64,000 bases of DNA from a bacterium (GTDB lineage Bacteria > JAJRZV01), in contig JAJRZV010000047.1 of assembly GCA_024275095.1 (NCBI GenBank), forward strand, positions 159 through 64,158, given 5' to 3'. A program made the translations under genes and the position numbers. A model generated the notes under the pieces. That model was given only the letters and a program-made list of their open reading frames with translations. It was not told the origin of the DNA and did not search any database. Below are positions 10,811 to 51,132 of this stretch, one piece after another; the stretch's first letter is position 1, and each line of letters opens with the position of its first letter.

Positions 10811-10823
10811 AGGTCCTATTTTC

Positions 10824-18469: not shown

Positions 18470-18484
18470 GTATGGGAGGGTGCC

Positions 18485-19642
18485 ATGAACTTTGCGTTTA
18501 CCGATGAAGAGCGTCAAATCATAGAAGCCTTTGCGGACCTGTGCAAAAAGGAAGTTGAACCCCGGGCAGCTGAGGTTGACCGGGAAATGAAATTTTCCTG
18601 GGAAAACCTGAAAGCTCTTGCTGAATTCGGATATCTCGGTGCCACATGGGATGAAAAGTACGGTGGCAAGGGCATTTCTCTACCGGTATTTCAGGCCATG
18701 AACATCGAGCTGGCCAAGGCGTGTGCTTCGACATATCTCTCTGTATCAGCGAACCTATCACTCTTCGGACACACCATTTACAAATACGGCAGCGACGAAC
18801 AGAAAGAAAAACTCCTGCCAGCTATGACCAGGGGAGAATTTGTGGGGGCTCTGTGTTCTACTGAACCTTCGGCCGGCTCAGATGTTCCGGCCATCAAAAC
18901 AAAGGCAGAAAAGAAGAATGGAAAATACATTATCAACGGGACAAAAACCTTCGTTACAAACGGACCCATAGCCGAATGGTTTGTCGTACTTGCAAAGACG
19001 GAACCGGAAAAAGGACGTGACGGCATGACCATGTTCCTCATTCACAAGGACACACCGGGATTCTCCGTCGGCAAACCATTTCACAAACTGGGAGTGAGGG
19101 GATCACCTACCAGTGAGGTTTACCTGGACGATGTCGAGGTTGATGAAAGTGCAGTTATCGGTGAGGTTAACAAAGGGTACTGGCAGTTGATGAACGTGTT
19201 CACATTTGGCCGGATTGGCATTGCCTCTTTTTCAACAGGTATCGCGGAAGCATGCCTGGAAGAGTGTATAAAATATTCAACCGAAAGAGAGGCGTTTGGC
19301 AAAAGAATTGCCGCTTACGAAGAAGTAAACTTCAAAATTGCGGATATGAAAGTTTACACGGACGTGGCCAGGCAGCTCATTTACCGTGCAGCGTGGGCTT
19401 ACGAAAACGACAAACCAGACGCAAAGGCTCTTGCCTCTGCCGCAAAGCTGTTTGCCTCAGAAATGGCCACAAAAATTGCATCTGATGCCGTACAGATACA
19501 CGGAGGTTATGGATACATCAGTGAATTTCGCGTGGAACGGCTTTACAGAGATGCAAAGCTGGGAGAAATTGGTGAAGGTACATCGGAAATTCAGCGTCTT
19601 CTTCTGGCGAGATACGTGGAAAAAGTTTATGGGGAGGGGTGA
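18485..19642 (+). CDS. Acyl-CoA dehydrogenase (paralog)
   Basis: 385 aa. …CSTEPSAGSDVPAI…, …IHGGYGYISEFRVERLYRDAKLGEIGEGTSEIQ…. Confidence 0.9.
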   Translation: MNFAFTDEERQIIEAFADLCKKEVEPRAAEVDREMKFSWENLKALAEFGYLGATWDEKYGGKGISLPVFQAMNIELAKACASTYLSVSANLSLFGHTIYKYGSDEQKEKLLPAMTRGEFVGALCSTEPSAGSDVPAIKTKAEKKNGKYIINGTKTFVTNGPIAEWFVVLAKTEPEKGRDGMTMFLIHKDTPGFSVGKPFHKLGVRGSPTSEVYLDDVEVDESAVIGEVNKGYWQLMNVFTFGRIGIASFSTGIAEACLEECIKYSTEREAFGKRIAAYEEVNFKIADMKVYTDVARQLIYRAAWAYENDKPDAKALASAAKLFASEMATKIASDAVQIHGGYGYISEFRVERLYRDAKLGEIGEGTSEIQRLLLARYVEKVYGEG

Positions 19643-24333: not shown

Positions 24334-25602
24334 GTGAAAGGGAAATTGGAAATACTCGCTACCGCCGTTATCCTTTGCTTTACAGTCACAAGCAGTTCCG
24401 CCCACGCTGATAAATGCGTGAAATGTCATTCTAAAGTAACCCCCAAAATCGTATCTGACTGGAAACTCAGCAAACACTTTCAAAACGACGTCTCATGCAG
24501 TGAATGCCACGGTTCCAGGCACAAAAAAGGCAAAAAAGATGCCCACAAAGTTCGCATACCCACACCCGAGACATGCGCCTCCTGCCATGAAGAACGCGTT
24601 AAAGAATTCAAAGCAGGAAAACATGCGTATGCATGGGCAGCCATGAAAGCCATGCCCACAGCTCACCGGCAACCCATGGCACTCATGGACGGCATGAAGG
24701 GCTGTGGGGGATGCCACAAGATCGGTCTGAAAACAGAGAAAGAAATCAACGAACTCAAAAGGCAGGGCCAAAAATTCGGCATAGCATCATGCGATGCCTG
24801 CCACACGCGTCACCTTTTCAGCGTCAAAGAGGCAAAACAGCCTCAGGCCTGTCAGACGTGCCACATGGGCTTCGATCATCCTCAATGGGAAATGTATTCC
24901 TCATCCAAGCACGGTGTGCGTTATCTTCTGAAGCAGGATGGGATACTGCCTTCCGACGCAGCCGCCCCTACATGCCAGACATGCCACATGCAGGACGGTA
25001 ACCATGAAGTGCGCACCGCATGGGGATTCCTCGCTGTCAGGTTGCCACTTCCTGAAGATGAACAATGGAAGAAAGATCGAATCACAATCCTGCAGGCACT
25101 CGGCGTGCTTGATCCTCAGGGCAAACCCACAAAACGCCTGGAGGTGGTCAAAGCAGCAGACGTGGCTCGCCTCGACGAAGCCTCATGGCAGAAGGAACGT
25201 GACAAAATGATCAAAACGTGCAGTCAGTGCCATTCTCCTAAATTCGCCAGGAAAGAACTGGAAAAAGGCGACGAAATGATTAAACAGGCAGACCGGCTCA
25301 TGGCAGAAGCCATTCGCATAGTAGCCGATCTCTACCAGAAGGGCTATCTTAAGAAACCGGCCAGCTATCCTTACCCTTTTCCCGATATTCTTACCTTCCA
25401 CGATGCACCCACGGTCATTGAACAAAAGCTTTTCAAAATGTTCTTAAAACACCGCATGCGCACCTTCCAGGGAACATTCCACATGAATCCCGACTACGCC
25501 CTGTGGTACGGATGGAGTGAAATGAAACAGGACCTCACGGAAATCAAGGAACTTGCCGAAGAAATCAAAGCCAGAGCGAAACACGAGAAACATCACAAGT
25601 AA
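24334..25602 (+). CDS. Periplasmic octaheme c-type cytochrome (HAO / octaheme-reductase-like multiheme family)
   Basis: GTG start with AAGGAGGT 6 nt upstream. Sec signal MKGKLEILATAVILCFTVTSSSAHA. Eight CxxCH motifs (CVKCH, CSECH, CASCH, CGGCH, CDACH, CQTCH x2, CSQCH). Confidence 0.85.
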   Translation: MKGKLEILATAVILCFTVTSSSAHADKCVKCHSKVTPKIVSDWKLSKHFQNDVSCSECHGSRHKKGKKDAHKVRIPTPETCASCHEERVKEFKAGKHAYAWAAMKAMPTAHRQPMALMDGMKGCGGCHKIGLKTEKEINELKRQGQKFGIASCDACHTRHLFSVKEAKQPQACQTCHMGFDHPQWEMYSSSKHGVRYLLKQDGILPSDAAAPTCQTCHMQDGNHEVRTAWGFLAVRLPLPEDEQWKKDRITILQALGVLDPQGKPTKRLEVVKAADVARLDEASWQKERDKMIKTCSQCHSPKFARKELEKGDEMIKQADRLMAEAIRIVADLYQKGYLKKPASYPYPFPDILTFHDAPTVIEQKLFKMFLKHRMRTFQGTFHMNPDYALWYGWSEMKQDLTEIKELAEEIKARAKHEKHHK

Positions 25603-36783: not shown

Positions 36784-38403
36784 ATGAAATACCCACGAGA
36801 CCATAAAAACACTGAAAATACTCTCAAAATTAAATGGTACCAGAGTATCAGTTTTAAGCTTACATTTGTGGTGGGTTTTGTTGTTACGTGCATATTTGGC
36901 TTCTTCATGTACGTGGTTATGAAAACCAGCCAGGATTCCCTTTTGCGCGAACTTCTCAGAAGTGCCACCCAGCTCAGCGAAACGGTCAGAAGGAGTACTC
37001 ATTACGATATGCTCGAAAATCGTCGCGAAAACATATATCGCATTATACGTACCATTGCTTCGCAGAAAGGGATAGAAAAAATCCGCATTTTCAATAAAGA
37101 AGGTCGCATCATGTTTTCTACTGCTGAAGAAGAAGCAGGAAAGATGGTGGATAAAAAAGCCGAGGAATGCTATGCGTGCCATGCACGTGAGCGACCACTT
37201 GAAAGGCTGGACATTAAAAAACGAAGTCGAATATTCCGCTGGGGTGAAGATAAGCACCGCGTATTCGGAATGATTACCCCCATATACAACGAAGAAAGTT
37301 GCTATACTGCTGCATGCCATTATCATCCACCCGAACAGAAAATTCTTGGGGTACTGGATATCGTTATCTCCCTGAAAGATGTGGATCAACGTCGCGAAGC
37401 CATGCTCAAGCGATTTCTCATCACAGCCGCTCTGGCCATCCTCTCGACATGCCTGCTCATTATCGTATTTATGCAGAAAGCCCTCATCACCCCTGTGCGA
37501 AAATTAGTGGAAGGAACAGAAAAAATCGCTGAGGGCAAACTAGAGCACCGAATCGACGTGGATACCGAGGACGAAATTGGAATACTTGCGAGGTCCTTCA
37601 ACGTGATGGCTGAAAACCTGAAAAAAGCGGAAGAGGAGATTCAGGAATGGATAAGAACGCTGGAAGAAAAAGTTAAGAGAAGAACCCGGGAGCTGGAAGC
37701 CACGCAAAAGCAGCTCATCCAGTCTGAAAAAATGGTGTCCCTGGGCAAACTTGCAGCCACCGTTGCGCACGAAATCAACAACCCATTAACAGGAGTGCTC
37801 ACCTACCTCAGGCTTATTTCCAGGAAACTTTCAGAATCAGAAGGAGAAATGAAAAAAGAAGATCTGCTCAGGTACCTCTGGATCATAGAAGCTGAAATTA
37901 AAAGAGCTTCTGTCATAGTAAAAGAGCTCCTTGATTTCGCCCGCCAGAGAGAACCCATACTGAAAGAGGTGGACATCAACAAGGTCCTGGAGGGGGCACT
38001 TTCCATTCTTTCCAACGAGGTCGCTCTGAGAAACATTACAGTAAAAAAATACCTGTCCAGGGTGCCCATCATCAAAGCCGATCCCAATCAGCTCAAACAG
38101 GTGTTTATCAACATTGTTATGAATGCCTGCGAAGCCATAAAAGAAAAGGGTGAGATTACCATTACAACACGGTATGATGAAAATGCAGGAGAGGTGGAAA
38201 TTCAAGTTACAGATACAGGGATCGGTATTCCCGAAGAAAATCTTTCGCGCATATTTGATCCGTTTTTTACAACCAAAGAAAAAGGTACTGGTTTAGGATT
38301 GTCGGTGGCGTACAATATTATCACGAATCACAAAGGCAAAATCCAAATCACAAGCAAAGAAGGAGAAGGCACCACTGTAACTATTCGACTCCCTGTATCA
38401 TAA
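36784..38403 (+). CDS. Sensor histidine kinase (TM – periplasmic domain with c-heme-binding motifs – TM – HAMP – HisKA – HATPase)
   Basis: HisKA H-box VAHEINNPLT and the HATPase G-boxes are present. The periplasmic segment between two TM helices contains CYACH (CxxCH) and CYTAACH (Cx4CH). I prefer the ATG at 36784; the ORF-track start at 36622 has no RBS or TM logic. Confidence 0.82.
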   Translation: MKYPRDHKNTENTLKIKWYQSISFKLTFVVGFVVTCIFGFFMYVVMKTSQDSLLRELLRSATQLSETVRRSTHYDMLENRRENIYRIIRTIASQKGIEKIRIFNKEGRIMFSTAEEEAGKMVDKKAEECYACHARERPLERLDIKKRSRIFRWGEDKHRVFGMITPIYNEESCYTAACHYHPPEQKILGVLDIVISLKDVDQRREAMLKRFLITAALAILSTCLLIIVFMQKALITPVRKLVEGTEKIAEGKLEHRIDVDTEDEIGILARSFNVMAENLKKAEEEIQEWIRTLEEKVKRRTRELEATQKQLIQSEKMVSLGKLAATVAHEINNPLTGVLTYLRLISRKLSESEGEMKKEDLLRYLWIIEAEIKRASVIVKELLDFARQREPILKEVDINKVLEGALSILSNEVALRNITVKKYLSRVPIIKADPNQLKQVFINIVMNACEAIKEKGEITITTRYDENAGEVEIQVTDTGIGIPEENLSRIFDPFFTTKEKGTGLGLSVAYNIITNHKGKIQITSKEGEGTTVTIRLPVS

Positions 38404-38413
38404 CCTGTTTTGG

Positions 38414-38965
38414 ATGAAAAGAATTCACATCATCCCTGTTGGGAAAACGAATGTTTCCATGCTCGAGAGGATATCGAAAAAAGTGGAACATTTGTTAAAT
38501 GTACCCTCCGAGGTATTGAAACCTGTAAGTGTGCCCAAAGAAGCTTACGACTACGTGCGAAAGCAATATAACTCCACCGTAATTCTTAAAAACCTGCTGG
38601 AAAAGGTAACCCCTGACTCTCTCAAAGTTATCGGTATTACTCATGTTGATCTTTTCATCCCTGTTCTAACTTTTGTATTTGGAGAAGCCCAGTTGGGAGG
38701 ACAGGTAGCCGTGGTATCCACTGCCCGTTTAAGGCAAGAATTTTACGGACTTCCAGCGGATGAATTTGTACTGGAAGAGAGGCTCTACAAAGAAGTCATC
38801 CATGAACTGGGACACACTTTCGGACTTGTACACTGTTCGCTCAACAAATGCGCTATGTATCTTTCCACCAGCATAAAATTCATTGACCTCAAAAGCAGTG
38901 GCTTCTGCAGGGAGTGCCAGAAACAGTTGAACAAAAGCCTCCAATTGCTTAAAACAGACAGGTAG
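38414..38965 (+). CDS. amzA: Archaemetzincin-like zinc metallopeptidase
   Basis: 183 aa. HELGHTFGLVHCSLNKCAMY matches the archaemetzincin HExxHxxGxxHCxxxxCxM zinc site. Confidence 0.65.
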   Translation: MKRIHIIPVGKTNVSMLERISKKVEHLLNVPSEVLKPVSVPKEAYDYVRKQYNSTVILKNLLEKVTPDSLKVIGITHVDLFIPVLTFVFGEAQLGGQVAVVSTARLRQEFYGLPADEFVLEERLYKEVIHELGHTFGLVHCSLNKCAMYLSTSIKFIDLKSSGFCRECQKQLNKSLQLLKTDR

Positions 38966-38967
38966 CC

Positions 38968-40332
38968 ATGAATAGTAAAGTTAAAGTACTCATTGTAGAC
39001 GACGAGCAGGTGGTGAGAGATTCTCTCTCCGAATGGCTCCGAGAGGACGGTTATGAAGTGGGAGCTGTAGAAAGTGGCAAAAAAGCTCTTGAAGAACTGG
39101 GCAAAAGCAACTGGGACATACTTCTGGTAGACCTCAAGATGCCGGAAATGGACGGTCTGGAACTTCTCCAGAAAGTAAAGGAAATTTCTCCTTCCATACC
39201 CGTCATCATTATCACCGCATACGCCACAGTGGACACTGCCGTTAAAGCCATGAAAGAAGGTGCATATGACTATCTTGTAAAACCTTTCGATCCGGAAGAA
39301 ATTTCCCTCCTCATGAAAAGACTCACAGAGCACATTAAACTGACCCGCGAAAATATTTACCTTCGACAGCAGCTGAAGAAACAATACACGCTTCACGACA
39401 TTATCAGCAGAAATCCCAAAATGCAGGAACTGATGGAACTGGTCAAAATGGTGGGACCAACAGATTCAACCGTGCTTCTTCAGGGCGAAAGCGGCACCGG
39501 CAAGGAACTGTTCGCCCGCGCACTCCACAAAGAAAGTCTCAGAGCAGACAAGCCCTTTATCGCGGTCTCCTGCGGTGCGCTCAGTGACAGCCTGTTAGAG
39601 TCGGAACTCTTTGGCTACGAAAAAGGGGCATTTACAGGTGCTACATCTCGCAGAAAAGGGAAATTCGAACTCGCCAATGGAGGAACTATTTTTCTCGATG
39701 AAATAGGAGACATAAGTCCAAAACTCCAGCTTGACCTTTTAAGAGTACTTGAACAGAAAGAGTTCTACCGGATTGGCGGCTCAGAAGTCATCAAAATAGA
39801 TGTCCGGGTCATCGCCGCCACGAACAGAGATCTCGAAAAAATGGTGAGAGAAGGACAATTCAGGGAAGACCTTTTCTACAGGCTCAACGTTGTCCCCATT
39901 CACATCCCTCCTCTCCGGGAGAGAAAAGAAGACATACCCCTTCTGGTTGACCACTTTCTCGAAATTTTCAGGTTGGAAACAGGCAAAAACATAGAGCGTG
40001 TAAGTGAAGATGCCATGAAGGTGCTGCTCGATTACGACTACCCAGGAAATGTTAGAGAGTTGAGAAACATCATAGAAAGAGCCGTTATTGTGGCAAAAGG
40101 TGACGAAATTACTGTTGAAGACCTTCGCTTCGGGCTCAAATCACCGCCTGCACCTTCGACGGAAGCGGAAGATGAAGCGCTTGAATCGGTAGAACGAGCT
40201 CATATATTGAAAGTGCTTAATAAATATGACTGGAACGTAAGTAAGGCCGCATCCGCTTTAGGAATTGACCGCACCACCCTTTACAACAAAATGAAAAAAT
40301 ACGGCCTTACGCGCCGGGGGAACGACGCGTAA
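38968..40332 (+). CDS. Sigma-54-dependent response regulator (NtrC family: REC–AAA+–Fis-type HTH)
   Basis: REC Asp (LLVDLKMPEMDG). AAA+ GESGTGKE Walker A. GAFTGA sigma-54 contact loop. C-terminal HTH. Confidence 0.9.
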   Translation: MNSKVKVLIVDDEQVVRDSLSEWLREDGYEVGAVESGKKALEELGKSNWDILLVDLKMPEMDGLELLQKVKEISPSIPVIIITAYATVDTAVKAMKEGAYDYLVKPFDPEEISLLMKRLTEHIKLTRENIYLRQQLKKQYTLHDIISRNPKMQELMELVKMVGPTDSTVLLQGESGTGKELFARALHKESLRADKPFIAVSCGALSDSLLESELFGYEKGAFTGATSRRKGKFELANGGTIFLDEIGDISPKLQLDLLRVLEQKEFYRIGGSEVIKIDVRVIAATNRDLEKMVREGQFREDLFYRLNVVPIHIPPLRERKEDIPLLVDHFLEIFRLETGKNIERVSEDAMKVLLDYDYPGNVRELRNIIERAVIVAKGDEITVEDLRFGLKSPPAPSTEAEDEALESVERAHILKVLNKYDWNVSKAASALGIDRTTLYNKMKKYGLTRRGNDA

Positions 40333-40357
40333 GGCCTGCTTCTACTGCGGGTGCAGG

Positions 40358-41062
40358 TCAGGAGGTAAGGAAGAACCTCCTTGTGATCTCGTCCCAACGA
40401 TCCGGATCAAGGGCACGTGCCAATCCCTTTACAGGTAAACCGCCGTCCTGATACACAAGACCAAGATCCTGTCCCGTAAGCCTGCGAAGTTCATCTGTAG
40501 AATGTTCTATCCACTTTTTCACCACATGGCCTTTTAATAAATTCCTGAGTGCAGAAGGTCTTGAGAGCTTCACCTTTAGAAGCCAACCCTTTTCGTAAGG
40601 GTCCTGTTCCATGGTCTCGGGGGAAGTGAGCACGTCATTGTTAACACCTACAACCTCACCGTCCACAGGAGAAAGCATATCTATCTTTTTTGAATCTACA
40701 ACAAGAGCCCATCCTTTCTCTCCCTGTTCAAGCCTTGTACCTTCACGTGGTAAATCCAGTGAATTGACTTTACCAACGAGCTTTTGAGCAAAATCGTCAA
40801 GACCCACCTGAACCACGTCTCCCGAGAGTACTTTGACCCAGGTATGTCCGGGATGGAAATAATAGGGCGCTTCTGGAGGTGGGACGCGGAACCACTCCAC
40901 AATGTCATAAAGCCAACCGTGGGAGACCTCTGCTTCAGCCTCTACAGCGGGAGTGGTCAGGTAAGACCAAAAGGCAACCAGCAAAAGGAGGAAACCTATT
41001 ACCAGAAGATATTCAACGCCTTTTGTTGCGTATATGTCTATCATGGCCAGCGTCTCCATCAT
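40358..41062 (-). CDS. Membrane-anchored glycine-cleavage H-protein-like (lipoyl-carrier-fold) protein, paralog 1
   Basis: One N-terminal TM helix. H-protein core …YFHPGHTWVKVLSGDVVQVGLDDFAQKLVGKVNSLDLPREGT…VVDSKKIDMLSPVDGEVVGVN… aligns with E. coli GcvH, with a Lys at the lipoyl-attachment position. Start overlaps the NrfD stop (ATGA). Confidence 0.68.
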   Translation of the reverse strand: MMETLAMIDIYATKGVEYLLVIGFLLLLVAFWSYLTTPAVEAEAEVSHGWLYDIVEWFRVPPPEAPYYFHPGHTWVKVLSGDVVQVGLDDFAQKLVGKVNSLDLPREGTRLEQGEKGWALVVDSKKIDMLSPVDGEVVGVNNDVLTSPETMEQDPYEKGWLLKVKLSRPSALRNLLKGHVVKKWIEHSTDELRRLTGQDLGLVYQDGGLPVKGLARALDPDRWDEITRRFFLTS

Positions 41063-42303
41063 GCCACCTCCTTTTTCATCTGGACTACATTATCCTCTTC
41101 CTCCCAGCCCTTGTGTTCGGTCAACACAGGCATTCTGTTCACCACCCACCTGAAAGCCCACATTTCTGCACAAATAACTGCCAGTGTAATCACTATTTCC
41201 ATCCAGGAAGGCACGTACCTGTTGGCAGCGTCCCATTTAAAAGCGATGATAGAAACGTTCAATCTGTTGAGAAGCACACCAACAACCGTAAAGAAGGCAA
41301 CAGTTTGAATCAACTTCACATTGCGAGTTCTTACACCGTAAGTGAAAAGCAGACACGGTATTACAACAAAGCCTATGAGTTCCACCAGATACCAGTGCCC
41401 CATCGAGGTGTTCAGCAGGTGCCAGTGATTACCGTGAGCAATACTTATGATTTTTAATGTGAAGTAGAGAAACAGTGTACCTGCAGCAGCTTTTCCGAGT
41501 CCCACTACAATATCATCAAAGGAGGCATGGTGCTCCGGGTCCACCTGAAACACTTTATGCGAGATGGAACTTTCCACAATGACCATGGAAAGTCCTCCAA
41601 AAATGCTGGACACAAAGAAAAGAACCGGAAGATTGGTATACCAGAGAGGATGAACTTTTGTGGGAGCCATGAGGAATAAAGCCCCAAGAGCCGACTGGTG
41701 CAACGTGGACAACGTGATCCCAAAAATCACCGCTCCCACCGTAAGTCCTCCAACGATCTGTCGAATTCTTTTCCACCCGAGCCATTCGGTAATAGCAGGA
41801 CTGAATTCCACAAATTCACAAATGGTGTAGAGAAAAAAATGCCACGCGATGAGAAATAACACCGAACTGAGTCCAAAGGAGTTACCAATCAGAGGATTAA
41901 TGACGTGCCATGGGCGGCCAAGATCCAGTAAAAGGGCACCACCATAAAAGCAATACCCCAGAAACCCTGTAAGAACCGCCGGTCTTACGATTGGATGGTA
42001 TTTTTCAAGTCCCAGTATATACACCATAAAAGGAATTACATATCCACCAGCAGCAATAGCCACACCCCCCATTACGTCGAACCCGATCCATATCCCCCAT
42101 GGAAAATCCTGTGACAGGTTGGTGGTAGCGCCCAGGCCTTTTACAAATCGAATCACAATAAGTACGCCACCAGCGAGGATAATTGCTCCGGTGATGACAT
42201 TAAAAGGAGTGAGTATCTTCCCCTTTGGTTTCAACTCGCTAATGATGAACCTGACAAAGTTTCCGACTTCGGACATGAGATTTTTCCTTTCGGCAGTGTT
42301 CAT
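41059..42303 (-). CDS. NrfD/PsrC-family quinone-interacting integral membrane subunit
   Basis: 414 aa, ~10 TM. NrfD-like topology and size. Sits immediately downstream of the FeS subunit. Confidence 0.82.
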   Translation of the reverse strand: MNTAERKNLMSEVGNFVRFIISELKPKGKILTPFNVITGAIILAGGVLIVIRFVKGLGATTNLSQDFPWGIWIGFDVMGGVAIAAGGYVIPFMVYILGLEKYHPIVRPAVLTGFLGYCFYGGALLLDLGRPWHVINPLIGNSFGLSSVLFLIAWHFFLYTICEFVEFSPAITEWLGWKRIRQIVGGLTVGAVIFGITLSTLHQSALGALFLMAPTKVHPLWYTNLPVLFFVSSIFGGLSMVIVESSISHKVFQVDPEHHASFDDIVVGLGKAAAGTLFLYFTLKIISIAHGNHWHLLNTSMGHWYLVELIGFVVIPCLLFTYGVRTRNVKLIQTVAFFTVVGVLLNRLNVSIIAFKWDAANRYVPSWMEIVITLAVICAEMWAFRWVVNRMPVLTEHKGWEEEDNVVQMKKEVA

Positions 42304-42316: not shown

Positions 42317-43195
42317 TCATTTAGCTTTTTTCACTTCTTCTTTTTTCACCTCTTCCCTGCGAGCATGGCTGATGCCCAGCAGAAAAGCAGGCCATATAAG
42401 AAGGACAAGAGAAACCCCGTAAAGGAATTCCTTTGTCAGTTCAGGATATGGTCTTGTGCCTACATTCGTGGGGAATCCAAGCTGTTCGAAGGGGACAGCA
42501 GCAAGGTACAACCATCCGGTGCCACCAACTTCGTGTTCGCCATAAACATGATGGACGTATTTATCAGGATTGTTATAAATACGCCTCTTTGCTTCTTCAA
42601 GAAGTTCACCCCTTTTACCAAAGACGATCGCTTCCTCAGGACATGCCTCCACGCACGCCGGCTGTTCTCCTTTCTCCAGCCTTTCGTAACACATGATGCA
42701 TTTGCGGATGCGGGGGTTAGGGCTGTCGTATTCAAACTTCGGAATATCGAAAGGACACGAAATCATACAATAACGACAGCCCATGCATTTATTCCCCCGC
42801 CAGATCACAGGACCTTCTGGTGTTTTATACATGGCCTTAACCAGACACGCCGATGCACAGGCAGGTTGATTACAGTGCATGCACTGTTTCTTCGCGTATA
42901 CCGTGCCCTTTTCTGTTTCATACCGATTTACCACGGTCCAGTGGTTCGGGTCAGTTTTACGATGCCTCTCGAACACAGATTCATCATCAATATCAGGCAC
43001 CGGAAGACCGTGAGCTTCTGCACACGCCTCTTCACAACTTCGACAACCAATGCACCGTGTGGTATCCACCAGTACAGAAGCCATTTCATTGAACACATCC
43101 TGGGCTGACTTCAAAGTACCGGCAGATGCAAGACCCCCGGTAAGGAGGGCTCCACCTGAAATCGCCGCAGTTTTGAGGAAGTCTCTTCGTCTCAT
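42317..43195 (-). CDS. Tat-exported 4x[4Fe-4S] ferredoxin subunit (NrfC/PsrB/HybA/DsrO-like)
   Basis: Twin-arginine signal MRRRDFLKTAAISGGALL. Four Cys clusters (CIGCRSCEEAC, CMHCNQPACASAC, CMGCRYCMISCP, CIMC…CVEACP). C-terminal hydrophobic helix. Confidence 0.85.
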   Translation of the reverse strand: MRRRDFLKTAAISGGALLTGGLASAGTLKSAQDVFNEMASVLVDTTRCIGCRSCEEACAEAHGLPVPDIDDESVFERHRKTDPNHWTVVNRYETEKGTVYAKKQCMHCNQPACASACLVKAMYKTPEGPVIWRGNKCMGCRYCMISCPFDIPKFEYDSPNPRIRKCIMCYERLEKGEQPACVEACPEEAIVFGKRGELLEEAKRRIYNNPDKYVHHVYGEHEVGGTGWLYLAAVPFEQLGFPTNVGTRPYPELTKEFLYGVSLVLLIWPAFLLGISHARREEVKKEEVKKAK

Positions 43196-43212: not shown

Positions 43213-43845
43213 TCAGGCTTTCTCTAAAAACTCTTTCACAATTGCCTGCCAGTGCTCTTTGTCTATTTTCTCGGAAAGTCCTTTAGGCACCTCTCCTCCA
43301 TCTGCTACAGTCACTCCAACTTCGGCGCTGAGGAAGTGATGGAGTCGATCTGATTCTCTCAACAGCCACTCTTTCGCCTTTTCACCGGAATAGAGGTCTT
43401 TCAAACCTCTCTTTTGTACCTTCATTTTGAGTATCCACCCTTCGCCGTAAGGGTCTTCTGAAACCACTTCCGGACGATGCAAGACAGTGGAGTTCACCTC
43501 CACTACCGTTCCATCAATGGGCCCAGGAACATTTACTTCTCCAGCATGGGCAGCGATCCTTATTGACGGCTTCCCTCTTCTCACCTCTCTTTTGGGCGGA
43601 ATTATCTCGCGAATGCGTCCAATAAGACGGACAGCAAAATCATCCAGACCGACCCTTGCAACCTCCTTCTCTTCAGGCTGAATCCACGTATGTACTGGTG
43701 AATAGAACCGGTCACCCGCAAAAACGAAACCGTGAACCTTCTCTATCCCCTCTGTTTTCACCCGCTGGCTCAACATCTGAGCCACCGCTATGGCACCCAT
43801 AACCACGAAAATCAAAAAAATCGCCACGTAACCCATAACGTTCAC
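43213..43845 (-). CDS. Membrane-anchored glycine-cleavage H-protein-like protein, paralog 2 (lipoyl-Lys position not conserved)
   Basis: N-terminal TM helix, then …SPVHTWIQPEEKEVARVGLDDFAVRLIGRI…PIDGTVVEVN… An Ala/His sits at the position aligning to the GcvH lipoyl-Lys. Confidence 0.66.
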   Translation of the reverse strand: MNVMGYVAIFLIFVVMGAIAVAQMLSQRVKTEGIEKVHGFVFAGDRFYSPVHTWIQPEEKEVARVGLDDFAVRLIGRIREIIPPKREVRRGKPSIRIAAHAGEVNVPGPIDGTVVEVNSTVLHRPEVVSEDPYGEGWILKMKVQKRGLKDLYSGEKAKEWLLRESDRLHHFLSAEVGVTVADGGEVPKGLSEKIDKEHWQAIVKEFLEKA

Positions 43846-44600
43846 CTCCTTTTCCTTTTTTTAAAAAAGCTTCTTGCCACCATCCCCCATTCCACCTGGT
43901 CGAGCTGCTTGTGCAAGCCAGGCATAATCTCTCCCCCGTCAGCAACAACCACGCCCAGTCTTTCCTCGAGAATTCTGTGCAGCTTATCAACTTCCTTTTC
44001 TATCCAATTTTTCACGCTCTCTCCGTGCAAGAGATTTTCGAGTGCATTTTGATCTTCAGGTTCTATCTCGCAGATCCAGCCCTCGAGATAGGGATCTCTC
44101 GTGAGGAGGCCGGGGTCTGCCTTTAAAGACTCATTTATTCCCACGACTGTACCGCTTACCGGGGAAAGCAGGCGTACTGATTTATCCCCGCACTTCACTT
44201 CACAAAGCACCTCCCCCTCTTTAACGAGACTTCCAGGCTCCGGGAGTTGAAGAGAAGAGACTCCATCCAGCAATCTGCTCCCAAAATGATCAAGTCCCAC
44301 TGACACGCGATTACGACCAGGCTTTACCCACAGGTGAGCAGGGTGATAGTAGAGATTCTTCATGAAGTAATAACCTCTTACCTTCTCGAGAAATGGCCTT
44401 ATGAGAGACTCCCTGTAAAACGGACACAAATGATACTCACCGGACGTGCACAGCGAAGGCTCCTTTTCAATGGACTCCAGGGGAATGGGTTTGCGCGTGG
44501 GAGCTTCACGACAGAATCCCACTGTTACAATCTCCAGGTGAGGACACTTGCCTCTTGTTTTCCTTTTTCGAGACTTTTTGAGGGTTACCTTTTTTCTCAT
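43842..44600 (-). CDS. Glycine-cleavage H-protein-like protein, paralog 3, with basic/Cys-rich N-terminal region
   Basis: …HPAHLWVKPGRNRVSVGLDHFGSRLL…EVKCGDKSVRLLSPVSGTVVGIN… The N-terminus is MRKKVTLKKSRKRKTRGKCPHLE…C…C…C. I prefer the ATG at 44600 (AGGAGG 8 nt upstream, downstream of the sigma-54 promoter) over the ORF-track start at 44669. Confidence 0.62.
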   Translation of the reverse strand: MRKKVTLKKSRKRKTRGKCPHLEIVTVGFCREAPTRKPIPLESIEKEPSLCTSGEYHLCPFYRESLIRPFLEKVRGYYFMKNLYYHPAHLWVKPGRNRVSVGLDHFGSRLLDGVSSLQLPEPGSLVKEGEVLCEVKCGDKSVRLLSPVSGTVVGINESLKADPGLLTRDPYLEGWICEIEPEDQNALENLLHGESVKNWIEKEVDKLHRILEERLGVVVADGGEIMPGLHKQLDQVEWGMVARSFFKKRKRR

Positions 44601-44627: not shown

Positions 44628-44643
44628 AGCAAATGCCATGCCA
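44628..44643 (-). promoter_or_regulatory. Sigma-54 (-24/-12) promoter TGGCAT-N5-TTGCT for the H-like/FeS/NrfD operon
   Basis: The minus strand reads 5'-TGGCATggcatTTGCTa-3' (consensus TGGCAC-N5-TTGCW). AGGAGG and ATG follow ~25 nt downstream. An NtrC-type activator gene lies adjacent. Confidence 0.6.
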
Positions 44644-44840
44644 CCATGGGCAATGGTCTCCAAAAGCACTACAGTAAAGGATTCTGAGAGACTCGCTATT
44701 TCTTCAGCGACCCTCAGAGTGTAGAAAAATTCATCTGTCGTGTTGCATTCTTCGACACACTTCTAAGACACACTGCGTCAACAATTCCGGTTTGCGTCAA
44801 AATGATAAAATGGGAACAAAAATTTAGTTTTTAGAGATAG

Positions 44841-45537: not shown

Positions 45538-46950
45538 TTAAAACGTGAACTCTGCGAGAACATAAACCATATCAAATTTTTTGAACAGTCCAAATTTTGT
45601 GCTGGGTTTGCCGTCAACTATCATGGAACCTGCCTTGATGGAAAGACTGTCCACTGGATAATATTCAAGTTCAGGAAAAATTGCATAAGAATTGGAATCA
45701 AGAAAATCACTGTAATCAGATACATTGAGGAGAAAACTTAGCCCTACCTTCAGAACTTCGGATATTACCTGATATTCACCTCTCATAAGGTAATAATCCT
45801 CTATTTCGCTTTCAAATCCCGGACGTCCCAGACCAGAATTTTCTGCTCTTTGAGTAAAGTCCATTTCATCAAAAAATCCGTGTATGTACTGAAAGTTGGT
45901 GTAGATTCCGTTTCCCACGCTGAAGGTGTAATCAAGACCTGCTACGAATTTCACGTATGCTTTTTCAAAAGCACTGCAGGTCTCACTCGTGAGCAAGTTT
46001 TTAAATTTCCAGTCTTCGGGTATGAAAATGCCCAGTTCTCCCCACCACCCGATGCTGAAGAGTTCTCCTGAAAATTCCAGACCCACCACCTGCAGAGATG
46101 GATAACCATATGTTACGGAAACCGCCACAGGAAAGGTTTGAATATTGCCTGAAATTTCCGATATAACGGGCATGTCAAAAAAACCCCTAAAGTATGAAAG
46201 AGCATAATCAATGTTAAATACTGTTCCAAAAAGACGGATCCCCCAGGGATTGTTGTCAGGCCTCCACGCAGGCATTTCTAAGTTCTGAACCACATTGATA
46301 GAAGACCCTTCAAACAATGGGAATTCTTCGACAAGTTCTCTTCTCATCACCTCTCCTGCCATTTCCCAGAATCCCAGGGGAAAGGACGCAGGTTTAAAGG
46401 AAAAAGTATAATTAACCTCCAGATTCACATAATCTGAAAAGTAATAGGTGAGGGATAAAACGGGGGTAGGGATGCTCTCCCCAAAATAATCAGGGTCAAA
46501 CGTCACAAAATTCGCCCAGTCTGAAGGATTGATGTTATCAAGGACGTGAATTTTATCTGCCTTGCCCCATTTGAGTCTCTGCTTACCAAGTTTTAAATCA
46601 AGGTTCTCAAGTCCGAAGCCCTCCACCTTGAAATAAGCCTCATAGAGAACAAGATCAAAAGAATTTATCTTTCCCCACCCTATGCCCTCTGTATCTGAGA
46701 GTTTCTCTACAGAAGGAACGTCCATGTATATAAAGTCAGCTCGGATAAAGTAATCTATATTTTCTCCAACCGTGCCTTCCACGTGGATTCTCGCATCTCC
46801 TTTGTTCAGGTAAAACTTCCCTGCTCTGTGAGGATAAAAGAACTCCTGAGAATCGGTTGTGAAAATTGTCGTGTAATACCTGAGCTTCCCTCCCACGGAA
46901 GCGTTGAGAGAAAGGGGAAGTATTAACGCAAAGAGAATGCCATTCATCAC
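45538..46950 (-). CDS. Putative outer-membrane beta-barrel protein (partner of MMPL/LolA-like operon)
   Basis: 470 aa with an N-terminal signal-like segment. Alternating beta-strand pattern and C-terminal …LAEFTF (terminal aromatic). Start overlaps the upstream stop. Confidence 0.5.
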   Translation of the reverse strand: MMNGILFALILPLSLNASVGGKLRYYTTIFTTDSQEFFYPHRAGKFYLNKGDARIHVEGTVGENIDYFIRADFIYMDVPSVEKLSDTEGIGWGKINSFDLVLYEAYFKVEGFGLENLDLKLGKQRLKWGKADKIHVLDNINPSDWANFVTFDPDYFGESIPTPVLSLTYYFSDYVNLEVNYTFSFKPASFPLGFWEMAGEVMRRELVEEFPLFEGSSINVVQNLEMPAWRPDNNPWGIRLFGTVFNIDYALSYFRGFFDMPVISEISGNIQTFPVAVSVTYGYPSLQVVGLEFSGELFSIGWWGELGIFIPEDWKFKNLLTSETCSAFEKAYVKFVAGLDYTFSVGNGIYTNFQYIHGFFDEMDFTQRAENSGLGRPGFESEIEDYYLMRGEYQVISEVLKVGLSFLLNVSDYSDFLDSNSYAIFPELEYYPVDSLSIKAGSMIVDGKPSTKFGLFKKFDMVYVLAEFTF

Positions 46951-47711
46951 CTTACCCTCCTTTTTAGATTTCTCTGCGTGAAGAGTTTGTCCGGAAGTCC
47001 CGTGTCAAATTCAATGTTTTCCATCTTCAGGAGGGTCCTGTGCTCCTTTTTCACATCCTCCACCTCCATTTCAACCATTGCCCAGTATTTTCCAATTTTT
47101 CTATGCTTCGCCCTGAACACCTTCCAGAGATTTCCTCCTTCGTCATATTTTTTTATCTCCACAGGAAACCAGGATCTTTTATCTATCTTTAGGTCCATTG
47201 TGGGATAAGGTTTATCTGACCCCTTTTTCCTCTCCGCTTTCAAATAATAGAAATTTTCATCCTCTTTCACAATTTCAGCAGTGTAATGCTTTTCGTAATG
47301 AGATGTAGACATGTCATCATAAGACAGATCTGACCCCATGAAGCTTTCATTTTTCGTGTGCGATGCTATTCTCCTAACTTTTTTGAACGCTGGCATGTAG
47401 AGGTACATCCTGTCATCAGCCAGAACCAAAAAACCTACTCCCCTCACGTCAGGAGGTGAGATAAATTTTATCAGTCTCCAGTCATCCTTGCCGGGAATGG
47501 TTTTCTGCCATACCTTCATCTTTCTTACCTTTTTATTGCCTCGTTTATCCACTAAGGTCATCACCATTGTCATCTCCTGGTCCCGTGGTGCGGAGAAAGT
47601 TTCATCCACTTTTGTGAGTATTTCATCCCCTGTAATTGCCAAAGAACTCAGAGGAATTAACAATCCCGAAAACACTCCTGCAACCACCAAGTATTTGAAG
47701 CAGGTCTTCAT
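46947..47711 (-). CDS. Outer-membrane lipoprotein-sorting (LolA-like) family protein
   Basis: 254 aa with a signal peptide. It resembles the LolA-like proteins that accompany MMPL/RND exporters. Start overlaps the MMPL stop. Confidence 0.55.
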   Translation of the reverse strand: MKTCFKYLVVAGVFSGLLIPLSSLAITGDEILTKVDETFSAPRDQEMTMVMTLVDKRGNKKVRKMKVWQKTIPGKDDWRLIKFISPPDVRGVGFLVLADDRMYLYMPAFKKVRRIASHTKNESFMGSDLSYDDMSTSHYEKHYTAEIVKEDENFYYLKAERKKGSDKPYPTMDLKIDKRSWFPVEIKKYDEGGNLWKVFRAKHRKIGKYWAMVEMEVEDVKKEHRTLLKMENIEFDTGLPDKLFTQRNLKRRVR

Positions 47712-50560
47712 CTCGCACCTCCTTTTCTCAAACTTTTCTGTATAAAAGGACTGGCGCCCACAATCATGAGAAGGGGACCTATAAATCCCAGAACCACTGC
47801 TGCGGAGAGGAGGAGCATGGCTGACGTGAGCATACCGAACACCTTAAGGGGTTTAAGGGAAGATAGAAGAAGCACCAGGAACCCACCTCCAACAGATATT
47901 GCGTTGGCGAGAATCGCCCTGCCTGCAGTCCTGAAAACGTCCAATATGCTTTTTCTGATGTCACCTGTTTCCCTGAAGGCTTCCCTTAGCCTGTGAAGAA
48001 GGTGAATGGAATAGTCAATCCCTGCACCTATTGCAATTGAGCCCATCAGCATGGTCATGTAATCAAGAGGGGAAGAGGTGATGGGAAGAAGCGCGTAGGA
48101 TATTGCAATGGTGAGGAGAATGGGCAGTATACCAATCACCCCCAGCACAGGAGAGCGAAATTCAGCGCTTATGAGGAAAAACACCACAAAGAAGGAAAGC
48201 GCCATGGAAGTCCAAAAGGAGCGAACCATAAATTTATCCAGTTGATTGACCAGAGGAGGCATTCCCGTTTGAATAAAATTAACAGTTATTTTTTCACCGC
48301 TGTAATTGCCTTTCACTATCTGAAACCTGTCTGTTAAGCCATATAAAATGCCAGTGACTTTCTTCTTGAGTTCAGGGATTTTATCAATTTCAGGAACAGA
48401 GGATCTGAGCAATTCCGTGATTTTTTTCACCGTCATCTCCTGCAGGAGGAAACGTTCAATATCCCTGAGTTCCACAAAAAGGTCTTCTATCAGGTCAAAA
48501 TCCTTCGGAGGCACATACTCTTTCACTGCTTCAGCAAAAGTTTTTCTATCTTTAAGTGTAGCAAGTGCCTTTTTCGCAAACTCCGAAACCTTGCTCTCAT
48601 CAATTAACACAACTGATTCATCGCTCCGCAAGTATTTTTCTATTTGAGAGGTAAGTTTCGCCTTCAGAAACGAGTCATCTGGAGGTGAGAAAAGGGAGTT
48701 CAATGAGGAGACAATTTTTTCTTCAGATATTTTTCTGTTCGTATACTTCAAAATAAGTGTTGAGAGGAGTTCAGCCTTTTCGGGGAAAACGTGTTTCTTC
48801 ATTAAGGTAATCTTCTCTTCATCTGTCATGTTTTCTGTATCAATAATGGTGTAGGTGCCGTTTATATTGCGAAGTATTTTTTCTATTCGGACATCAATTT
48901 TTTTCATCAGCGCTGTGTCTATCTCCCTCACTCTACCCATTGCAAGGAGCTTCTTCTCATCCCCCGAGACAAGCTGTTCCATGATGTCCTGACCTTCAAG
49001 CATAAGCCAAAGGTTTGCCACCCCTTCATCCGTATCAGGAACTTTGAACCTCCCGTAAAGTTGATAGTTCATTTCAGCGAGCAGGTCCGCAACACTCTGG
49101 AAAGAACTCACGTCTTCAATTTCGTCCAGAAAAATTTCAACATCAAAAAGTTTTTTGAGAAGAGCAGAATTTTTAATCGTGCCTCCATCATCAGAAGAAT
49201 AGTAAATGAGCACGGGCATTGCTCCGTCAAAGTGTTCTTCCATGATGCGCGATGCTATGCGCGGAGCACTGTTCTCCGGGAAGAACGTGGTGAAATTCAC
49301 TTCCCTGCTTATGCGAGGTAATAAAAAAAGGGAACCAACCGCAAGGAACAGCCAGAAGAATATGAAAAATAAAGGTTTCTGTAATATGAATTCTCCTGCT
49401 TTCAAAAGCAGTCTGAACTCCCTGCGCTCACCCACAGTAACCAGAGATTTACGGGAAAGGGGAAATGTGCTCAGAAGAGCAGGGAAAAATGTGACCGACA
49501 GTATAAAGCACCAGAAAATCCCACCTGCTGTGAAAATTCCAAAGTGTTTTATTATGGTGAGCCTGGCAACTACGAAGGATGCAAAGCCGGCAAGGGTGGT
49601 AAAAGCAGCCATTGCCACTGGAGGAAGGATACTGTCCAGCCCTTCTGAACACGCCTGCTGAAAGTCTCTCTCACGGGCGTAAAGGGAAATTCTGTTGAAA
49701 ACGTGTATTCCGTAAGCACTTCCCATTGCTATGATGACCACGGGCATGATGGGAGAAATCATGGTCATGGGAACGTTGAAAACAGGAAGCAAAGCGAACA
49801 TGAGTACAGACCCAACGAACATTGACCCCAGAATGAAAAGCACAACCTTCACGCTTCTGAAGGTGACAAACAAAACAATCAAAATGAAAATAATCACCAC
49901 GGGCAGAAGTGTCTGCAGGTCCTTTACCGCAAACATATTGCCATAGAGAGCACTGACAGGCATCCCCCCGAAATACAACTTCACACTGTCTTTCCACTTT
50001 TCCGCTACGCGCTGGCTTTCCTTAATGACTCTCTCGCTCACTGCAATTTCATCATGCTGTCCGGAGAGAAATACGCTGATGGCAGTGAATTTCCCATCCT
50101 CTGAAACAATTGATTTTCTGAACATCTCCTTTGACAAGACATATTCACGGAGTTTTCTCAGTCCTTCTTCATCTGGGATATCCTTTATAAGTTCTGCAAC
50201 CTCCACTCCGCCCTCTATCTTCTTTATGTCGGTCATGTTTATGATGCTTATCACATTTCTCACGCCCTGAATCTTCTTGAGAGAAGAAGATATTTCCCTC
50301 ACGCACTCAAGGACATCCTTCTGGAAAACATCTCCTTTCAAACTCTCAACCACTATCATATCCATTTTGCTCGTTCCGAACTCCTTGCTCACGTGAATGA
50401 ACAATCCTGCAATGGGATCCTTTTTGGGCAAAAAGCTCTCAATACGGTTATCCATGTATATTCTGGTGAGCATGTAGCCTCCTGCAAGGAGAAACAGAGA
50501 GGTGAGTAAAATAATAAACTTTCTGTGTTTTACTACTTTATCTCCATAAACAACCTTCAC
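47708..50560 (-). CDS. MMPL/RND-superfamily exporter (two sterol-sensing-like 6-TM bundles)
   Basis: 950 aa. Two repeated 6-TM blocks, each preceded by a large periplasmic loop. MMPL-type N-terminus …RIYMDNRIESFLPKKDP…. Confidence 0.82.
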   Translation of the reverse strand: MKVVYGDKVVKHRKFIILLTSLFLLAGGYMLTRIYMDNRIESFLPKKDPIAGLFIHVSKEFGTSKMDMIVVESLKGDVFQKDVLECVREISSSLKKIQGVRNVISIINMTDIKKIEGGVEVAELIKDIPDEEGLRKLREYVLSKEMFRKSIVSEDGKFTAISVFLSGQHDEIAVSERVIKESQRVAEKWKDSVKLYFGGMPVSALYGNMFAVKDLQTLLPVVIIFILIVLFVTFRSVKVVLFILGSMFVGSVLMFALLPVFNVPMTMISPIMPVVIIAMGSAYGIHVFNRISLYARERDFQQACSEGLDSILPPVAMAAFTTLAGFASFVVARLTIIKHFGIFTAGGIFWCFILSVTFFPALLSTFPLSRKSLVTVGERREFRLLLKAGEFILQKPLFFIFFWLFLAVGSLFLLPRISREVNFTTFFPENSAPRIASRIMEEHFDGAMPVLIYYSSDDGGTIKNSALLKKLFDVEIFLDEIEDVSSFQSVADLLAEMNYQLYGRFKVPDTDEGVANLWLMLEGQDIMEQLVSGDEKKLLAMGRVREIDTALMKKIDVRIEKILRNINGTYTIIDTENMTDEEKITLMKKHVFPEKAELLSTLILKYTNRKISEEKIVSSLNSLFSPPDDSFLKAKLTSQIEKYLRSDESVVLIDESKVSEFAKKALATLKDRKTFAEAVKEYVPPKDFDLIEDLFVELRDIERFLLQEMTVKKITELLRSSVPEIDKIPELKKKVTGILYGLTDRFQIVKGNYSGEKITVNFIQTGMPPLVNQLDKFMVRSFWTSMALSFFVVFFLISAEFRSPVLGVIGILPILLTIAISYALLPITSSPLDYMTMLMGSIAIGAGIDYSIHLLHRLREAFRETGDIRKSILDVFRTAGRAILANAISVGGGFLVLLLSSLKPLKVFGMLTSAMLLLSAAVVLGFIGPLLMIVGASPFIQKSLRKGGAR

Positions 50561-51132
50561 TTTTTCATAATCCCTTCCAGAAGATATTTTGAAAGAGTGA
50601 GCATTCCTTTTTTGATCTTCTTGCTTCTCTTTGAGATTAAATACCTTATGGCAATCTCGTTTAAAGCGGTGATTATGGCAATGGATAGGAGGTCAATCTC
50701 TTCCACCTGAAAAATCCCTCTGTCTACACCTTTTAAGAACAATTGCCTGAGCATATTCACTTCTTCTTTTTCAAACACAGCCATCACGTCTCTGACGAAC
50801 TCAAGGCTTGACTCCAGCGCTGAGGAAGTAACGCCCCTGTGGGATAGATGTTTTTCAATTGTGTTCAGCATAATTTCTGGAAGTTTTTTTATCGCTTCAA
50901 CCGGGTCTTCAATTTCATTCAACATCCCCTTAATCTCTTTCAAAATTTCTTCGCCGTCTTTTTTCACAGCCTCACGGAACAATTCTTTTTTGTTTTTGAA
51001 ATAATAGAAAATGCCCGCATCCTTTATCCCTACTTCCTCAGCAACGTCTTTTAAAGTAACCCTCCGGTAACCGTGACGTGCGAGAAGTTTCGCAGCACTC
51101 TCCAGTATTACTTCTCTCGTGTTTTTACCCAT
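50557..51132 (-). CDS. TetR/AcrR-family transcriptional regulator
   Basis: N-terminal HTH …GYRRVTLKDVAEEVGIKDAGIFYYFKNKKELF… Stop overlaps the MMPL start. Confidence 0.8.
   Translation of the reverse strand: MGKNTREVILESAAKLLARHGYRRVTLKDVAEEVGIKDAGIFYYFKNKKELFREAVKKDGEEILKEIKGMLNEIEDPVEAIKKLPEIMLNTIEKHLSHRGVTSSALESSLEFVRDVMAVFEKEEVNMLRQLFLKGVDRGIFQVEEIDLLSIAIITALNEIAIRYLISKRSKKIKKGMLTLSKYLLEGIMKK

Follow-up and report, generated by a model that had tools for sequence, protein, structure and literature searches.

A predicted heme-sensor kinase operon with a conserved archaemetzincin gene, convergent with a sigma-54 operon for an Hmc-like redox module

The three-gene operon and its archaemetzincin

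The system considered here lies in a 64,000-nucleotide stretch of bacterial DNA (lineage JAJRZV01; positions 159 to 64,158 of contig JAJRZV010000047.1, assembly GCA_024275095.1), referred to below as the window. It consists of three consecutive genes on the forward strand. The first (36784..38403) encodes a sensor histidine kinase of 539 amino acids (aa), in which a transmembrane segment (TM1), a periplasmic Cache-type sensor and a second transmembrane segment (TM2) precede HAMP, HisKA and HATPase_c domains. The second (38414..38965) encodes an archaemetzincin (AMZ; family M54 of MEROPS and Pfam) of 183 aa, recognised from its open reading frame (ORF) and its Pfam, NCBIfam and PDB matches. The third (38968..40332) encodes an NtrC-type sigma-54 activator of 454 aa, identified by ORF, Pfam and NCBIfam. 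The gaps are 10 nt between kinase and AMZ and 2 nt between AMZ and activator, so that both the gene order and the spacing given in the original prediction, which was made from the sequence alone, are as stated. The longest ORF of the kinase opens at a TTG at 36622; the N-termini of homologs agree with ATG 36784.

The middle gene product falls in family M54. It reaches 92 bits against Pfam PF07998 (Peptidase_M54; 6.2e-26, cut-off 24.4) and 177.9 bits against the NCBIfam archaemetzincin model NF033823 (cut-off 145), and it matches the PDB entries 2x7m (7e-28, whole length) and 3zvs (1e-26). The zinc metallopeptidase proposed earlier is thus placed in a protease family, but the description 'archaeal-type' does not hold: the family is not specifically archaeal, as those nearest to the window protein, out of more than 7,900 scored homologs, are found in bacterial assemblies. 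Assignment to the non-proteolytic Myxococcus subfamily NF033824 was ruled out (115 against a cut-off of 250).

The zinc sites HELGHTFGLVHC (aa 130-141), the Met-turn CAM (146-148) and the CREC motif (165-168) are encoded at 38801..38917 on the forward strand. The extended archaemetzincin motif, HEXXHXXGXXHC-X4-CXM...CXXC (PMC3427221), is satisfied by HELGHTFGLVHCSLNKCAM...CREC, and the alignment with 2x7m is gapless across the zinc sites. All 89 relatives in a conservation set retain the catalytic His, Glu, His, His and Met, together with three of the four Cys; the remaining one, Cys168, is retained in 88. At the Gly of HEXXHXXGXXH, 38 of the 89 have N, R, D, E, H, P, S or A instead, with the metal ligands intact, which is unusual for metzincins; these replacements occur in loci L003, L005-L007, L010, L012, L020-L023 and others. 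The protein has no signal peptide or transmembrane segment and is therefore expected to be cytoplasmic. A public gene call, P0077 (160 aa, 99% identical), opens 23 codons after ATG 38414. The longer form is taken to be correct because residue 3 is where homology sets in, both to archaeal AMZ proteins and to the NCBIfam model.

The genomic context of the protease gene was followed in two samples. The first was selected through AMZ: a scan with one genome per species gave 210 relatives, of which the best 80, mostly from Acidobacteriota and with 43-51% identity, were kept and their loci annotated by tblastn with the window proteins. An NtrC gene adjoins the AMZ gene in all 80 of these best loci. 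The kinase is present in 76 and its sensor in 75, and genes for HmcC and HmcB, which in the window belong to the convergent operon described below, in 62 and 59. The order is kinase-AMZ-NtrC in 33 loci and (kinase-)NtrC-AMZ in 47, and in every case the genes stand close together on a single strand. A third arrangement is seen in L085, a deltaproteobacterial metagenome-assembled genome, and in L091, where AMZ heads a set of GcvH-GcvH-HmcB-HmcC genes and the kinase and regulator stand at the far end. The AMZ gene keeps this company in ~90 other genomes and metagenome contigs, and the assemblies that carry the AMZ of this system are labelled Acidobacteriota, Deltaproteobacteria, Limnocylindrales and Eremiobacteraceae.

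The second sample is independent, having been picked through the sensor rather than the protease, and consists of 80 metagenome loci (L086-L165). In 30 of these the kinase gene is followed by one or two receiver-GcvH fusions, and none of the 30 has AMZ. In 14 it is followed by a full NtrC gene, with three more that end at the contig edge, and nine of these 17 have AMZ. The difference between the NtrC-type and fusion-type loci is significant (Fisher p = 1.8e-5). One locus, L133, has the trio in the kinase-AMZ-NtrC order alone, and the 10 kb to its left and right contain neither Hmc nor GcvH genes. In this locus (9758-19157) tatC comes directly after the trio and lptC-lptA-lptB-rpoN a few genes later, which places the system near the gene for sigma-54 itself.

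The archaemetzincin gene belongs to the NtrC-type version of the module and is not a stray. The embedded position to which attention had first been drawn is thus part of a real and strongly non-random association, but three arrangements are conserved, and the slot between kinase and regulator is just one of them.

A sensor kinase with two predicted hemes

The kinase has Pfam matches to HAMP (6.6e-16), HisKA (6.7e-13) and HATPase_c (4.9e-30), and its parts are all encoded on the forward strand. The first 22 residues carry a net positive charge. They are followed by TM1 (aa 24-46; 36853..36921), a hydrophobic segment within a long helix (22-77) of an AlphaFold2 (AF2) model, and by the periplasmic Cache-type sensor (36922..37413), which is recognised from the model, from Foldseek and from a profile search. 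TM2 (aa 211-230; 37414..37473), again both a hydrophobic segment and a feature of the AF2 model, leads into the HAMP domain (aa 232-280; 37477..37623). The kinase core consists of HisKA (aa 320-390, with the H-box AHEINNP) and HATPase_c (aa 433-538), together at 37741..38397. Two Cys/His motifs sit between the hydrophobic segments, where they had been noticed originally: CYACH, a CxxCH (aa 129-133; 37168..37182), and CYTAACH, a Cx4CH (aa 173-179; 37300..37320), with His181 following. HAMP domains are cytoplasmic, and since one stands directly after TM2 the loop that holds the motifs should be extracytoplasmic. The topology therefore places both motifs in the periplasm and not in the cytoplasm.

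A search with aa 1-241 of the kinase gave 76 relatives, the best with ~50% identity. The AF2 model was built on an alignment of the query with 39 of these 76, among which CYACH, CYTAACH and Met76 are invariant. The model (pLDDT 88.9) contains a single Cache fold between two transmembrane helices: a long N-terminal helix runs on into TM1, the sheet is of Cache type with five strands, and a C-terminal helix runs on into TM2. Foldseek searches of the PDB returned the Cache domain of WalK (9e-9 to 1e-5), GSU0935 (3b42, 1.9e-5) and GSU0582 (3b47, 1.4e-3). A single-sequence search of the PDB with the sensor gave only chance matches to ACE2, and a profile search was needed; its top match was 3b42 (GSU0935), with an E-value of 6e-5. 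In the profile alignment 'YNEpeCseaaCH' falls onto 'NEQRCQSCH', and the invariant Met onto the first Met of 'GYMMK'. The heme-binding residues of GSU0935 are Cys140, Cys143 and His144, and the distal ligand is Met60 (PMC8396549). CYTAACH thus aligns with the CQSCH of GSU0935 and is taken as the core heme motif, a family heme site expanded by two residues, and Met76 (37009..37011), which aligns with Met60, is a candidate distal axial ligand of the core heme. CYACH, located in a beta2-beta3 insertion, is regarded on the basis of conservation as an accessory heme motif.

Conservation of the motifs, on which the original prediction could be checked, was followed in 162 sensor relatives from 160 loci. 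Met76, Cys173, Cys178 and His179 are kept in all of them and His181 in 161. The core position reads Cx4CH in 161 relatives and Cx3CH in one. CYACH is kept in ~91% (Cys129 and Cys132 in 147, His133 in 153). It is truly absent from 15, all Acidoferrales-type, in which the Cx4CH and the Met are retained. This subclade (L005, L015, L020-L023, L026, L031, L042, L055, L056, L058, L059, L064 and L071) would represent a natural one-heme version of the sensor. The Cx4CH is the invariant, family-defining site, and the canonical CxxCH is accessory. The sensor family has ~400 representatives at E<=1e-30 among 1.84 billion searched.

Only five ORFs of at least 100 aa in the window bear a CxxCH: the kinase, one octaheme cytochrome and three that are apparently spurious. 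This scarcity, together with the conservation among relatives, speaks against a chance origin of the kinase motifs. The octaheme c-type cytochrome (24334-25602, forward strand; a 422-aa ORF with eight CxxCH and a Pfam Multi-haem_cyto match of 1.9e-31) is encoded ~11 kb upstream of the system, which indicates that the organism matures c-type hemes. Judging from homology to the Geobacter heme-c sensors, the sensor most likely carries two covalently bound hemes; the profile match, the aligned residues and the Foldseek result all point the same way as the Geobacter-like heme sensor first proposed.

Sensors with two CX2-4CH motifs have been noted in Geobacter, in the two-component protein GSU0599 and in GSU0591, and are listed for Anaeromyxobacter also (PMC8396549, PMC3831638). 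Heme-bearing Cache domains, moreover, have recently been described as a family (PMC12889525). The present sensor is thus a member of an already recognised kind; a literature search for CXXXXCH together with histidine kinases found nothing. GSU0599 adjoins the sigma-54 regulator BccR (GSU0598), which induces the quinone oxidoreductase CbcBA in response to a falling redox potential (bioRxiv 10.1101/2021.04.15.440034). In L082, a metagenome locus of CbcBA/BccR-like layout, the sensor of the present family occurs twice, in a kinase and in a stand-alone protein of 277 aa. The stand-alone gene (L082 8001-8834) follows multiheme cytochromes and a cytochrome b and lies beside a kinase and a sigma-54 regulator, resembling the Geobacter cbcBA/bccR region with GSU0591. 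Other stand-alone sensors of ~270-280 aa (P0046-P0073) likewise consist of a transmembrane segment, the diheme sensor, a second transmembrane segment and a short tail, without a kinase.

In the mechanism that these relationships suggest, the core c-type heme would be attached to the Cx4CH, where His179 would be its proximal and Met76 its distal ligand, and a second heme would occupy the CxxCH of the inserted loop. A change in heme redox state, or displacement of Met76 by nitric oxide (NO) or carbon monoxide (CO), would alter the heme coordination and thereby move the N-terminal helix that runs into TM1, and the signal could then reach the kinase core by way of TM2 and HAMP. By analogy with Geobacter BccR, the system may switch on a membrane redox module as the periplasmic redox poise changes.

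The main alternative as to the input is a gas sensor, in which NO or CO bound to the ferrous heme displaces Met76 and switches the kinase, without reference to redox potential. Both gases reversibly displace Met60 in GSU0582/GSU0935 (PMC8396549), and signalling-fused heme-Cache domains are spectroscopically NO-sensor-like (PMC12889525). However, the BccR locus with GSU0599, which among characterised systems is the nearest regulatory relative, follows falling redox potential, and the sensor is persistently found beside periplasmic and membrane electron carriers elsewhere (HmcB/HmcC, cytochrome c3, CbcBA-like and MtrB-type porin-cytochrome genes). The output of the system is also a redox module and not an NO-detoxifying enzyme. 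A dedicated gas sensor therefore seems somewhat unlikely.

Certain features of the sensor fit a heme protein less well. The Pfam model PF21563 (Mcp40H-20_sensor) gives 24.7 bits, below its cut-off of 27, and the Tll0287-like model PF11845 gives no match to the sensor at E<=0.01; several sensor homologs bear a precomputed PF21563 annotation. Members of the sCache_heme family have, with 99% conservation, a canonical CXXCH in the short helix that precedes the last beta-strand (PMC12889525). The core motif here is Cx4CH rather than the canonical CXXCH that defines that family, and the CxxCH of the window kinase is at another position. These departures from the canonical motif and from the Pfam threshold, together with the four Cys and at least three His of the periplasmic loop, would suit a thiol- or metal-based sensor without heme, in which the motifs bind a metal ion or form disulfides. 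Such a sensor is very improbable, as the alignment with the heme-binding residues and ligand Met of a crystallised heme sensor holds residue by residue, and Met76 is invariant, a residue with no part to play in either a disulfide or a zinc site. Heme attachment through CX4CH is well established, as in cytochrome c3 of Desulfovibrio. For the Geobacter sensors a CX2-4CH signature is already in use (PMC8396549).

The convergent sigma-54 operon

The activator consists of a receiver domain (Response_reg, aa 7-113, with its Asp in VDLKMP), an AAA+ domain (Sigma54_activat, 145-312, with GESGTGKE and GAFTGA) and a C-terminal HTH_8 domain (405-445), as assigned by Pfam. It thus has the receiver Asp, the AAA+ domain with GAFTGA and the Fis-type helix-turn-helix of the NtrC family. 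The top NCBIfam similarities of the kinase and regulator are to AtoS/AtoC and ZraS/ZraR, all under the equivalog cut-offs.

Five genes on the reverse strand converge on the activator gene. The first of this operon (43842..44600) encodes a GcvH-like protein (Pfam GCV_H) with a 4-Cys N-terminal extension that is also present in L091. It is followed by a second GcvH-like gene (43213..43845), whose product has an N-terminal transmembrane helix, and by genes for an HmcB/HybA-like 4Fe-4S protein with a Tat signal for export (42317..43195; NCBIfam HmcB 2.9e-107, HybA 2.4e-73) and an HmcC/HybB-like (NrfD-type) integral membrane subunit (41059..42303; NCBIfam HmcC 4.6e-132). The scores for HmcB (358 against an equivalog cut-off of 420) and HmcC (441 against 550) mark these two as relatives and not equivalogs. 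The last gene (40358..41062) encodes a third GcvH-like protein, again with an N-terminal transmembrane helix; its ortholog in L085 has a weak match to DVU_0533 (HmcD-like). A 14-bp GC-rich hairpin followed by a T-tract (40303..40336, reverse strand) is a likely terminator of the operon and overlaps the 3' end of the activator gene.

A putative sigma-54 promoter, TGGCATGGCATTTGCT, with the -24 GG and -12 GC, lies at 44628..44643 on the reverse strand, 27 nt upstream of ATG 44600. It is the single exact match to TGGCAYN5TTGCW in the window, where 0.10 would be expected, and it is followed by AGGAGG and then by the ATG. A loose pattern allowing two mismatches was uninformative (32 matches in the window against 33.7 expected). 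The longest ORF of the first gene opens at GTG 44669 and would swallow the promoter, but the promoter and the AGGAGG support ATG 44600 as the true start. Identical hexamers, TGGCAT-N5-TTGCT, stand ahead of the orthologous gene in L091. Sigma-54 promoters before GcvH genes were seen in only about nine related loci (including L024, L048, L073, L091, L103/L104, L124 and L132); since many related loci end before the operon start, this tally is support and not a test.

The HmcB/HmcC and GcvH genes are neighbours of the system in 62 of the 80 genome loci and in 41 of the 80 metagenome loci. This co-location in many relatives, with the unique exact match at -24/-12, supports the earlier proposal that the regulator controls the neighbouring sigma-54 operon, and the pairing of this promoter with this regulator is presumed in what follows. 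The kinase would phosphorylate the NtrC-type regulator, which would in turn activate sigma-54 RNA polymerase at TGGCAT-N5-TTGCT. Three GcvH-like proteins and the HmcB/HmcC-like iron-sulfur and membrane pair would thereby be induced.

Some 105-130 nt upstream of the promoter lies a tandem 13-nt repeat, TTCTTCGACACAC / TTCTAAGACACAC (44748..44773), which is a candidate site for the activator to bind. No conserved activator-binding site was found among the window, L091 and L085. L091 (1050-1160) and L085 (6060-6175) have TGTTGA-N5-TCAACA palindromes upstream of the sigma-54 promoter or GcvH genes, and these are likely activator-binding sites there.

A cytochrome c3-like gene stands between hmcC and the kinase gene in the sister clusters L081, L084 and L085. 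The window operon has none, and the periplasmic partner of the HmcB-like protein would therefore have to be either the heme domain of the kinase or an unlinked cytochrome. In many sister clusters one or two receiver-GcvH fusions replace NtrC after kinases with the same sensor (L081 11985-13918, L084 9871-11878 and 30 of L086-L165). These fusions suggest that the GcvH-like domain is the effector of the pathway. A literature search for GcvH-like proteins with response regulators found no such fusions described. Alignment with solved GcvH structures is ambiguous as to the lipoyl-lysine: in one alignment the third protein has a Lys at that position, while the Lys of the first protein is off by one residue. 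A lipoamidase activity of AMZ on lipoyl-GcvH was set aside, given this ambiguity and the occurrence of the trio without GcvH genes nearby.

Next to the operon, at 45538-51132 on the reverse strand, are genes for a TetR regulator, an MMPL/RND-like transporter, a LolA-like protein and a DUF1302 outer-membrane protein, which are apparently unrelated to the system. This gene set indicates that the organism is diderm.

The proposed circuit and its relation to known systems

The observations are consistent with a redox- or gas-sensing circuit that has an accessory signalling protease. In this explanation the trio forms a three-gene regulatory unit that controls the convergent sigma-54 operon for an Hmc-like membrane redox module, with phosphotransfer from kinase to regulator; taken whole, and with the protease step included, we judge it somewhat better than an even proposition. 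The circuit of heme sensor, sigma-54 activator and operon, taken separately, is quite probable. A signalling role for the archaemetzincin is a possibility that falls a little short of even. As a cytoplasmic zinc peptidase with an intact active site, AMZ would most likely cleave or trim the activator or the kinase and in this way adjust or reset the output. Of the patterns seen, linkage to NtrC is the strongest, and a substrate within the signalling pair is accordingly favoured. Put most specifically, AMZ would be a signalling protease dedicated to a sigma-54 circuit with heme-redox input, cleaving the NtrC-type activator or the kinase to set or reset output; in this form the proposal is less likely than not.

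As the main alternative, the protease could act on the products of the sigma-54 operon, for example by removing the N-terminal anchor or 4-Cys extension of a GcvH-like protein, or by turning the GcvH-like proteins over after the signal. The receiver-fused GcvH proteins of the sister clusters would then be controlled directly by phosphorylation, and a protease would be unnecessary there. In keeping with this, the free-standing GcvH-like proteins bear N-terminal extensions, AMZ is absent from all 30 fusion clusters, and in L085 and L091 it stands directly before GcvH-GcvH-HmcB-HmcC, distant from the kinase and regulator. However, its absence from the fusion clusters is explained equally well by the missing NtrC, it adjoins NtrC in every one of the 80 AMZ-selected loci, and the L133 trio has neither Hmc nor GcvH genes nearby. 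Action on the operon products therefore seems rather unlikely.

Several points weigh against the preferred reading of AMZ as a signalling protease within the sigma-54 circuit. The L085/L091 arrangement fits action on the operon products equally well. Approximately half of the sampled NtrC-type clusters have no AMZ within the contig, and L132 has none within 10 kb on each side, so that the protease is not essential to the circuit. Fusions of AMZ to the kinase or regulator were looked for and none were found. The upstream repeats of the window are not common to L091 and L085, which have the palindromes instead. Archaeal AMZ proteins showed little or no activity on test substrates. Archaea, to our knowledge, are without sigma-54 systems, and the ancestral role of the family must thus lie elsewhere. 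That AMZ is a functionally unrelated passenger, kept by inherited gene order within one lineage, might be argued from the predominance of one phylum, Acidobacteriota, among AMZ-positive loci and from the NtrC-type clusters that lack it, but this is scarcely credible in view of a linkage preserved across three different gene orders and several lineages (from Acidobacteriota and Deltaproteobacteria to Limnocylindrales and Eremiobacteraceae), the tight or overlapping gene spacing, the invariant catalytic residues and the skew between NtrC-type and fusion-type loci.

Archaemetzincins were defined some twenty years ago and crystal structures exist, and we know of no physiological substrate in any organism. 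A literature search found no physiological context for the family and no link of M54 to two-component or sigma-54 systems. The multi-lineage linkage described here gives this orphan family a context and, as a first testable lead on its function, names candidate substrates, namely the activator, the kinase and the GcvH-like proteins. If a signalling protease is correct, it would be the first physiological role for M54, and a three-component kinase-protease-activator module would be spread across Acidobacteriota and other anaerobic lineages. The heme sensor is not new, being a further member of the family recognised in Geobacter; the association with a protease is the new part. The loci also point to an uncharacterised redox module in which genes for diheme Cache kinases accompany those for HmcB/HmcC-like subunits and GcvH-like effectors. 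Its regulation takes two forms, a transcriptional one that uses NtrC and a direct one that uses receiver-GcvH fusions. The module is found in assemblies from peat, sediment and soil, settings in which it is important to control electron flow close to thermodynamic limits.

Among characterised systems, the nearest in kind is GSU0599/BccR of Geobacter sulfurreducens. It shares a periplasmic sensor with two CX2-4CH motifs, an adjacent gene for an NtrC-type sigma-54 response regulator, and as target a sigma-54 operon (cbcBA) for a quinone-linked inner-membrane redox complex. The likeness of GSU0599 to the window kinase rests on the literature and on L082, not on direct alignment. In contrast to the window, no archaemetzincin is described at that Geobacter locus, the target is the cytochrome bc pair CbcBA rather than HmcB/HmcC with GcvH-like proteins, and BccR is divergent from its target where the window units are convergent. 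The sensor domain itself is best compared with GSU0935 and GSU0582 (3B42 and 3B47; the sCache_heme/DUF3365/Tll0287 family), which have the same Cache fold between two transmembrane helices, a heme motif at the same position before the last strand and a distal Met on the N-terminal helix. They differ in having CXXCH where the window kinase has Cx4CH plus an extra CxxCH in the beta2-beta3 insertion, and they are chemoreceptors, whereas the output here is a histidine kinase.

NtrB/NtrC, AtoS/AtoC and ZraS/ZraR have the same arrangement of receiver, AAA+ (GAFTGA) and HTH_8 domains in the regulator and the same HisKA and HATPase core in the kinase, but their sensors and targets are different, and the window has a third, enzymatic gene between the pair. 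AmzA (Methanopyrus kandleri 2X7M; Archaeoglobus fulgidus 3ZVS/4AXQ) and human AMZ1/AMZ2 share the full M54 extended motif with the window protein, which unlike them is bacterial and has its gene within or next to those of a sigma-54 two-component system. The iron-sulfur and membrane subunits of the target operon resemble HmcB/HmcC of the Desulfovibrio Hmc complex (HmcABCDEF) and HybA/HybB of Escherichia coli. The window operon, in contrast, is without cytochrome, hydrogenase, HmcE and HmcF genes and has three GcvH-like genes instead. The system is thus known in kind as regards its heme kinase and sigma-54 logic, and what has not been described before is the conserved archaemetzincin and the Hmc-like/GcvH-like output.

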